Assembly (NCBI RefSeq): GCF_054482595.1
Contig: NZ_CM137008.1
DNA length: 64,000 nt
Direction: 5' to 3' (one strand)
Part shown: positions 56,646 through 57,994 of the stretch, piece by piece
Layout of the letters: each line of letters opens with the position of its first letter
Position numbering within the stretch: position 1 is the stretch's first letter
Notes under the pieces: model-generated
What the model was told of the DNA's origin: nothing
The model's database searches: none
The model's input: only the letters and a program-made list of their open reading frames with translations
Program-made: the position numbers and the translations under genes

Positions 56646-57176
56646 ATGGCTATCACTGGCATCTTTTTCGGCAGCGACACCGGTAATACCGAAAATATCG
56701 CAAAAATGATTCAAAAACAGCTTGGTAAAGACGTTGCCGATGTCCATGACATTGCAAAAAGCAGCAAAGAAGATCTGGAAGCTTATGACATTCTGCTGCT
56801 GGGCATCCCAACCTGGTATTACGGCGAAGCGCAGTGTGACTGGGATGACTTCTTCCCGACTCTCGAAGAGATTGATTTCAATGGCAAACTGGTTGCGCTG
56901 TTTGGTTGTGGTGACCAGGAAGATTACGCCGAATATTTCTGCGACGCATTGGGCACCATCCGCGACATCATTGAACCGCGCGGTGCAACCATCGTTGGTC
57001 ACTGGCCAACTGCGGGCTATCATTTCGAAGCATCAAAAGGTCTGGCAGATGACGACCACTTTGTCGGTCTGGCTATCGACGAAGACCGTCAGCCGGAACT
57101 GACCGCTGAACGTGTAGAAAAATGGGTTAAACAGATTTCTGAAGAGTTGCATCTCGACGAAATTCTCAATGCCTGA
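56646..57176 (+). CDS. fldA: Flavodoxin 1
   Basis: 176 aa from [63 protein letters not shown]... Confidence 0.97.
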
Positions 57177-57381
57177 TGTGATGCGGCGTAGACTCATGTC
57201 TACGCCGTATTAATAGATAATGCCAATCAAAATAATTGCTACAAATTTGTAACTTTTGCTGTTGTACCTGTACAATGTCCCGGTGTTCAAGTGGCCTTGC
57301 CGTTGTAAATGTAAGCTGTGCCACGTTTTTATTAACAATATTTGCCAGGGACTTGTGGTTTTCATTTAGGCGTGGCAATTC

Positions 57382-57399
57382 TATAATGATACGCATTAT
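57382..57399 (+). promoter_or_regulatory. Fur box in the fur/uof promoter region (autoregulation)
   Basis: ataatgatacgcattatc matches the consensus ataatgataatcattatc at 16 of 18 positions. Confidence 0.6.
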
Positions 57400-57472
57400 C
57401 TCAAGAGCAAATTCTGTCACTTCTTCTAATGAAGTGAACCGCTTAGTAACAGGACAGATTCCGCATGACTGA
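57386..57472 (+). CDS. uof: uof leader peptide, translationally coupled to fur
   Basis: 28 codons, MIRIISRANSVTSSNEVNRLVTGQIPHD, ending 8 nt inside fur; matches the known upstream-of-fur ORF as recalled. Confidence 0.7.
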   Translation: MIRIISRANSVTSSNEVNRLVTGQIPHD

Positions 57473-57911
57473 TAACAATACCGCCCTAAAGAAAGCTGGC
57501 CTGAAAGTAACGCTTCCACGTTTAAAAATCCTGGAAGTTCTTCAGGAGCCGGACAACCATCACGTCAGTGCGGAAGATTTATACAAACGTCTGATCGATA
57601 TGGGTGAAGAAATTGGTCTGGCTACGGTATATCGCGTACTGAACCAGTTTGACGACGCTGGTATCGTCACCCGCCACAATTTTGAAGGCGGTAAATCCGT
57701 ATTTGAACTGACACAGCAACATCACCACGATCACCTGATCTGCCTCGACTGCGGCAAGGTTATCGAATTTAGTGATGATTCCATCGAAGCGCGTCAGCGT
57801 GAAATTGCCGCAAAACATGGCATTCGCCTGACTAACCACAGTCTCTATCTTTACGGTCACTGTGCCGAAGGCGATTGCCGCGAAGATGAGCACGCGCACG
57901 AAGGCAAATAA
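57465..57911 (+). CDS. fur: Ferric uptake regulator
   Basis: 148 aa, MTDNNTALKKAGLKVTLPRLKILEVLQEPDNHHVSAEDLYKRLIDMGEEIGLATVYRVLNQFDDAGIV... Confidence 0.98.
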   Translation: MTDNNTALKKAGLKVTLPRLKILEVLQEPDNHHVSAEDLYKRLIDMGEEIGLATVYRVLNQFDDAGIVTRHNFEGGKSVFELTQQHHHDHLICLDCGKVIEFSDDSIEARQREIAAKHGIRLTNHSLYLYGHCAEGDCREDEHAHEGK

Positions 57912-57930
57912 GCCAGTCTGAACGAGAAAA

Positions 57931-57954
57931 GCCAACCTGCGGGTTGGCTTTTTT
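57931..57954. terminator. Bidirectional intrinsic terminator between fur and chiQ
   Basis: gccaacc-tgcg-ggttggc hairpin with a T6 run on plus and an A-run upstream. Confidence 0.8.
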
Positions 57955-57994
57955 ATGCAAGGGAAATAAGAAAAGCGAGAGTTACAGCTCTCAC

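Follow-up and report, generated by a model that had tools for sequence, protein, structure and literature searches.

The fldA-uof-fur locus

The fur gene of the DNA examined here encodes a protein of 148 amino acids and lies at 57465-57911 on the plus strand, as given both by the list of open reading frames (ORFs) and by RefSeq. Upstream of it, on the same strand, the RefSeq annotation mapped onto the window (the whole 64-kb stretch of DNA that was analysed) places fldA, which encodes flavodoxin 1 (56646-57176). Between these two genes lies uof, a 28-codon upstream ORF annotated as the fur leader peptide, b4637 (57386-57472, plus strand), which is supported by the ORF list, by RefSeq and by alignment with K-12. 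It starts at the ATG at 57386-57388, stops at the TGA at 57470-57472 and encodes the peptide MIRIISRANSVTSSNEVNRLVTGQIPHD. The two reading frames share 8 nt (ATGACTGA), with the TGA of uof lying across codons 2 and 3 of fur. The sixth codon of uof, as read from the sequence, is TCA (57401-57403, plus strand), that is, a UCA codon in the mRNA, which according to the literature needs a MiaB-modified tRNA-Ser.

This is a well-known region. All of the 311 positions shared with MG1655 across 57170-57480 of the window are identical, and the fldA-fur intergenic region together with the uof ORF shows 100% nucleotide identity to E. coli K-12 MG1655 (a K-12 coordinate is 768111 minus the window position). 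Since the leader is identical to that of K-12, the element is the known uof-fur control region. The initial annotation, which had been made from the letters alone and had named a lack of similarity to the K-12 uof-fur leader as what would refute it, is thus borne out by this alignment of the fldA-fur region, and its description of a 28-codon uof that starts at 57386 and overlaps the start of fur agrees with the sequence and the ORF list in position, codon count and overlap. Compared with uof-fur of E. coli K-12 (b4637/b0683), the locus is unchanged in its 28 codons, its 8-nt overlap and the UCA at codon 6; nothing differs, since what is seen is the K-12 locus as carried by another strain of the species. 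The K-12 annotation names uof the "RyhB-regulated fur leader peptide" (b4637) and gives fur as b0683, and the gene order ybfE, fldA, uof, fur, chiQ, chiP is common to the annotation tables of RM9872 and K-12 MG1655.

The region is also nearly universal in the species. By megablast, 57150-57520 is present in 5,424 of 5,426 complete E. coli genomes, 5,306 of the matching records have at least 99% identity to it, and the RefSeq features beneath the matches are fldA, "uof: fur leader peptide" and fur. The fldA-uof-fur region is absent in the other 2 of the 5,426 genomes, and at least one E. coli genome carries two copies of it, one of them on a plasmid.

The Fur box and the fur promoter

A Fur box, TATAATGATACGCATTATC, occupies 57382-57400 on the plus strand. 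It matches the 19-bp consensus GATAATGATAATCATTATC at 16 of 19 positions, and at 16 of 18 if positions 2-19 alone are counted, which is the sense in which the 16/18 of the initial annotation is valid. By hexamers, the agreement with the consensus is 5/6 for TATAAT, 4/6 for GATACG and 6/6 for ATTATC. In a motif scan with at most three mismatches allowed, this is the sole site in the 64-kb window, and none was found in 100 dinucleotide-preserving shuffles. Both the near-consensus box and its position over the uof ATG are therefore confirmed.

The box spans the -10 hexamer of the fur promoter, the uof ATG and the probable start of transcription. This promoter, Pfur (57359-57387, plus strand), consists of a -35 element TTTTCA (57359-57364), a spacer of 17 nt and a perfect -10 element TATAAT (57382-57387), and with 10 of 12 consensus positions it is the best sigma-70 match that the consensus promoter scan returned in the region. 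On its left side the Fur box begins with this -10 hexamer, whose fifth and sixth positions double as the A and T of the uof start codon. Among the matches listed for other Enterobacterales, TTTTCA lies at exactly 17 nt in 44 of 64 distinct promoters, and the spacer drifts; the retention of the -35 element despite this drift argues for Pfur as a genuine promoter of long standing.

We infer that the Pfur transcript starts at approximately 57394-57396, inside uof and 3′ of its AUG. Because the uof ATG is embedded in the -10 element, transcripts from Pfur would begin within uof and lack its initiation codon, and uof coupling would consequently be confined to transcripts that start further upstream. 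These positions are consistent with published maps. The Fur box has been placed on the -10 of the promoter Pfur-a, and autoregulation of fur through the box is cited in the same work, which also maps one uof start site 5′ of the ORF and, inside the ORF, two start sites of fur (a and b) with OmpR sites around them (PMC7867234). Similarly, Puof has been described as giving rise to a uof-fur mRNA and Pfur, located inside the uof ORF, to a fur mRNA (PMC6191717). The fur operator of de Lorenzo et al. (1988), as it is cited in PMC7867234, likewise has the box over the Pfur -10, and in that account there is no difference from the present one.

The reading of the initial annotation is supported, and the coupling of uof and fur that it named is known from the literature. 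One point needs correction: it had put the Fur box and the uof overlap together as a single arrangement, and the box acts on the Pfur -10 element, at the level of transcription. The box serves Pfur as the operator for autorepression of transcription, and the translational coupling does not involve it. What can be added to the known operator is that the first two bases of the uof start codon, A and T, belong to its -10 hexamer. As two bases are shared in this way, start-codon mutations at any position other than G57388 also damage the promoter. G57388 is the sole base of the uof start codon that can be changed without altering the Pfur -10 hexamer.

Longer transcripts and the upstream promoter

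Transcripts that contain the uof AUG may come from several sources. A candidate Puof lies at 57247-57276 (plus strand), with a -35 element TTGTAA (57247-57252), an 18-nt spacer and a -10 element TACAAT (57271-57276), and matches the consensus at 9 of 12 positions in the promoter scan. A transcript from this candidate would contain the uof AUG. The combination TTGTAAC-N-TACAAT, with a variable spacer, is present in 21 of 115 Enterobacterales loci among the matches listed, and its carriers include Salmonella, Citrobacter, Cedecea and Erwinia-type loci. Puof has been located 5′ of uof in two studies (PMC6191717, PMC7867234), and ybfE-fldA-uof-fur is reported to be co-transcribed, in an operon fed by three promoters (PMC4161252).

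Directly 3′ of the fldA stop codon, at 57185-57206, there is a perfect 9-bp hairpin (GGCGTAGAC-TCAT-GTCTACGCC) that is not followed by a U run, and the terminator scan made no call for it. This agrees with reports that transcription continues from fldA into uof-fur.

The leader hairpin and the ribosome-binding block

Two elements of the leader are conserved downstream of the promoter. The first is a hairpin at 57417-57437 (plus strand; UCACUUC-UUCUAAU-GAAGUGA), which covers codons 11-18 of uof and was recognised by minimum free energy folding and by covariation. The second is a near-invariant ribosome-binding block, TAGTAACAGGACAGATTCCGCATGACTGA, at 57444-57472 (plus strand), defined by the invariant columns of a 31-genus alignment, in which it covers, counted from the fur ATG, approximately positions -21 to +8 (AGCAACAGGACAGATTCCGCATGACTGA). 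It includes the fur Shine-Dalgarno AGGA (57451-57454).

The hairpin is fixed in position rather than in sequence. Among the matches listed, which gave 63 distinct leaders, the best local hairpin has its 3′ end, relative to the fur ATG, at a median of -30 (interquartile range -33.5 to -28), and the mean z-score of the hairpin against mononucleotide shuffles is -1.84. At least eight unrelated stems form it at this position, for instance ACUUCC/GGAAGU, AGGCG/CGCCU in Serratia, AGGCU/AGCCU in Yersinia, CGCUCA/UGAGCG in Cedecea, GCCC/GGGC in Mangrovibacter and UCCCC/GGGGA in Tenebrionibacter. It is present in loci with every frame of the upstream ORF.

Covariation points in the same direction. In a MAFFT alignment of the E. 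coli-like clade, an 8-pair helix is paired in 89.9% of cells, compared with 32-50% for slid partners, and its covariation score exceeds that of all 500 shuffles. After realignment of the 73 loci (among the matches listed) with a covariance model, which by construction leans towards structure and leaves about one third of the sequences gapped through the helix, seven of the eight pairs are changed on both sides, 33 cells are compensated where 12.1 are expected (none of 500 shuffles being as high), and 83.8% of cells are paired against 26-47% in slid controls. RNAalifold, applied to MAFFT alignment A2, reported only an invariant mini-helix of 3 bp and missed the hairpin, because the stems of the different clades are out of register in that alignment; per-sequence hairpin detection and covariance-model realignment were used in its place.

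Taken over its full length, the short leader is not more stably folded than its shuffles (z = 0.24), so no global structure is claimed for it. With the Rfam covariance models, no match to the leader was obtained at an E-value of 1 or below. Matches to STnc370, STnc50 and isrD, well below their gathering scores, fall on the minus strand at the fur terminator. This intrinsic terminator, 3′ of fur at 57926-57955 (AAAAGCCAACC-TGCG-GGTTGGCTTTTTT), was read by eye and is not listed by the terminator scan. A second hairpin, at 57973-57996, is called on both strands and lies between the convergent genes fur and chiQ.

The upstream ORF across Enterobacterales

The loci compared, at least 120 from Enterobacterales, were collected by means of a degenerate DNA pattern on the N-terminus of Fur. 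In 73 of these loci, including those of Serratia, Yersinia, Edwardsiella and Hafnia, TATAATGA occurs 50-130 nt 5′ of fur. The ORF that begins at the embedded ATG occurs in all three frames relative to fur among these 73 loci, which are those of the matches listed. It is of the uof type, with 28-31 codons and an end 8 nt into fur, in 35 of the 73 (for instance in Escherichia, Citrobacter, Enterobacter, Kluyvera, Leclercia, Kosakonia and Phytobacter). In four, in Cedecea neteri and Mangrovibacter, it ends in an ATGA overlap; in another four, in Buttiauxella, Cedecea colo and Enterobacter sp. R1, it runs in frame into fur without a stop; and in the remaining 30 it stops 5′ of fur or differs in another way, as in Serratia, where MRRN is followed by a stop. 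Thus, among the matches listed, the core formed by the -10 element and the ATG is far more widespread than the uof frame, which is found in 35 of 73 loci that carry the core. In addition, the first codons of fur (ATGACTGA) give a TGA in both alternative frames, so any upstream ORF that reads through to fur ends at its start.

In the two Buttiauxella loci, Cedecea colo and Enterobacter sp. R1, the embedded ATG could yield a Fur protein with 22-23 additional N-terminal residues, predicted as MRRIHLNAHPDSERIVKQQDNFR-MTDNN... In the E. coli leader, a three-codon mini-ORF, ATGAAGTGA, is found in frame with fur at 57429-57437, where the hairpin has its loop and 3′ arm; its TGA corresponds to the stop of the 16-codon Salmonella ORF described below.

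Within the Escherichia-Citrobacter-Enterobacter-Kluyvera group, no stop interrupts the frame for 28-29 codons, and the difference in length between the -79 and -82 groups amounts to exactly one codon. The peptide itself shows little sign of constraint. Variability at the three codon positions is flat, both in the 28-codon uof group (0.134/0.090/0.134) and in the 29-codon group (0.161/0.186/0.157), and there is no third-position excess in either, which argues against protein-like purifying selection on the uof peptide. Among the matches listed, just 9 of 27 distinct uof-type ORFs have UCA as their sixth codon.

Salmonella departs from this group. In Salmonella diarizonae, the Fur box is identical to that of E. 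coli and a 1-nt deletion lies further 3′. The Salmonella-type set comprises S. diarizonae and ten further genomes with a 150-aa Fur variant, which as a query sequence we take to be that of S. enterica; the synteny of these ten is unlike that of E. coli. In all 11 of these genomes, the Fur box and the -10 element are identical to those of E. coli, and a single nucleotide is deleted in the loop of the hairpin (equivalent to 57424-57437 of the window), so that the frameshift coincides with the conserved structure. In each of the 11, the resulting upstream ORF is 16 codons long (MIRIILSAISVTSLMK) and, instead of overlapping fur, stops 27 nt short of it.

Yersinia and Serratia share the promoter region and mostly differ in the ORF. 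The fur region of Yersinia enterocolitica (PMC7867234) has the fldA-fur synteny and the positions of the Fur box and the -10 element in common with E. coli, and the loci of Yersinia and Serratia share the TATAATGAGACGCA core. Unlike in E. coli, no uof is reported for Y. enterocolitica (PMC7867234). Among the matches listed, the embedded-ATG ORFs of Yersinia and Serratia mostly have 4-14 codons and stop far 5′ of fur; Y. ruckeri is an exception among Yersinia, with a uof-type ORF of 31 codons.

Candidate pairing with RyhB

According to later papers, RyhB blocks initiation at uof and thereby lowers the synthesis of Fur. Pairing was examined with the RyhB sequence of MG1655. A candidate segment at 57404-57419 (plus strand) gives a restricted duplex of -11.9 kcal/mol, in which GAGCAA (57405-57410) would pair with RyhB U42-C47, including G44/C45, and UGUC (57415-57418) with RyhB 38-41. 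A longer candidate duplex reaches RyhB 60-77 and 57368-57392 of the mRNA. The restricted duplex around the start of uof (-24.4 kcal/mol) is not above background, with 30% of random 66-nt windows equalling it. When 30-nt windows were slid against the RyhB core, the best ones in the leader did not fall at the start of uof; they were 57526-57550, which is within fur, and 57257-57286. Scores as good as the best of them occurred in 3.7% of background windows. RNAduplex with full-length RyhB against the whole leader was uninformative, as it returned huge loops and scored no better than shuffles. Since the duplex scores lie within background, RyhB pairing with uof is not supportable by computation. 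In a published benchmark, the RyhB-uof model was likewise not predictable by any of the methods tried, and it overlaps the terminator stem of RyhB.

One study reports G44/C45 of RyhB as essential for the repression of uof/fur, gives RyhB "the same site" of action on the long and the short mRNA, and finds a decrease in the short fur mRNA with RyhB but none in the uof-fur mRNA (PMC6191717). The candidate segment is 3′ of the presumed Pfur start and therefore fits a site shared by both mRNAs. The lowering of the short fur mRNA alone fits poorly with a route that is purely mediated by uof. Just 5′ of K-12 ryhB, a gene that lies outside the window, TGAGAATGATTATTATTGTCTC resembles the Fur box of the ryhB promoter and would be the other half of a Fur-RyhB feedback loop.

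Proposed layers of control and alternative interpretations

In all probability, the segment is the native E. coli fur control region, in which two physically overlapping layers, one in the DNA and one in the RNA, operate at different levels. This uof-fur control region is already known and is annotated in RefSeq, and the DNA is that of an ordinary E. coli chromosome. Vecerek, Moll and Blasi, in EMBO J in 2007, reportedly described the RyhB-regulated translational coupling of uof and fur. In the model that follows, Fur binding, the uof-fur coupling and the effects of RyhB and MiaB are taken from the literature and are combined with the anatomy of the sequence, its identity to K-12, the geometry of promoter and box and the patterns of conservation, which are direct observations.

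At the level of DNA, iron-loaded Fur on 57382-57400 would block RNA polymerase at Pfur, producing a weak autorepression of fur, and Fur bound to the box may also act as a roadblock to transcription arriving from upstream. At the level of RNA, long transcripts, either from Puof or from fldA/ybfE read-through, would bring the uof AUG at 57386. Ribosomes on uof would then translate its 28 codons, passing the hairpin of the leader and the ribosome-binding block of fur, and termination at the UGA at 57470-57472, 5 nt beyond the fur AUG, would promote initiation at fur. When Fur is inactive, RyhB would be made and would pair with the 5′ part of uof, so that translation of uof, and hence of fur, would fall. 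Decoding of the uof UCA codon may also depend on MiaB, which is an iron-sulfur enzyme. Transcripts from Pfur would have to use the Shine-Dalgarno of fur directly.

A comparable arrangement is found in the control of thrL and ivbL by GcvB (PMC7534054), where a small RNA likewise blocks initiation at a short upstream ORF and lowers the downstream gene. In contrast to those leaders, which work by transcription attenuation, the uof-fur leader has no terminator, and the overlap of stop and start codons serves as the link.

Several of the results above count against the main reading: RyhB pairing is within background and was not predictable in the published benchmark, RyhB is reported to lower the short fur mRNA and not the uof-fur mRNA, the uof frame is kept, among the matches listed, in only 35 of the 73 loci with the core, and the peptide has no third-position excess in variability. 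In an alternative explanation, uof is mostly a by-product. Selection would act to keep promoter, hairpin and ribosome-binding block, the short Pfur transcript would be the source of most Fur, and coupling would be minor and specific to some lineages. Both ends of uof could indeed be borrowed, as its ATG is part of TATAATG (the -10 element plus a G) and its stop is supplied by the first codons of fur. The variable frame (35 uof-type, four ATGA and four in-frame loci of 73, among the matches listed), the flat codon-position variability, the Pfur start inside uof and the 16-codon Salmonella-type ORF, which in 11 of 11 genomes ends 27 nt before fur despite an identical Fur box, all suit this explanation. 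Nevertheless, we regard it as unlikely. Several later papers, PMC6191717 among them, summarise experiments according to which uof is translated in E. coli and fur translation is coupled to it and depends on it, and the frame is held open over 28-29 codons in the Escherichia-Citrobacter-Enterobacter-Kluyvera group, where the -79 and -82 groups are separated by exactly one codon.

A second alternative would be that the Fur-box match is a chance resemblance of an AT-rich -10 region and that Fur does not act at 57382-57400. The left end of the box is the TATAAT hexamer itself, and between genera its right half, ATTATC, varies more than the -10 element does. Even so, a match of 16/19 with a perfect ATTATC half-site, unique in 64 kb and not reproduced in 100 shuffles, at a box through which autoregulation of fur is established in the literature, makes this explanation very improbable. 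Lastly, an attenuation-type leader peptide of the trpL/hisL kind, controlling a terminator before fur, can be practically discarded: EcoCyc does place uof among the leader peptides and a conserved hairpin lies inside it, but the terminator scan found no terminator-like site between 57386 and 57465, the hairpin at 57417-57437 has ACCGCUUAGUAAC after it instead of a U run, and an alternative antiterminator pairing is not apparent in a leader whose overall z-score is 0.24.

Implications for fur regulation in Enterobacterales

Two consequences follow for work on this locus. The sharing of bases between the uof start codon and the Pfur -10 element bears on how uof start-codon mutants at the native locus are designed and interpreted, where changes at G57388 have to be distinguished from those that damage the promoter. 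Furthermore, the uof mechanism of E. coli is not automatically transferable to Salmonella or to other genera in which the upstream ORF ends elsewhere.

A broader interpretation is offered tentatively, and with more doubt than confidence. The fixed hairpin, approximately 30 nt before the fur AUG, and the ribosome-binding block of about 30 nt, both below Pfur, may constitute an ancestral conserved unit, on which the uof frame would be an overlay of the Escherichia-Citrobacter-Enterobacter-Kluyvera group that is out of register in Salmonella. If this is true, the coupling of RyhB, uof and fur would not be general even among close relatives and would be absent in Salmonella, and the hairpin would be an undescribed element of the fur leader, for which a platform for Hfq or small RNAs, mRNA stability and ribosome pausing are candidate roles.
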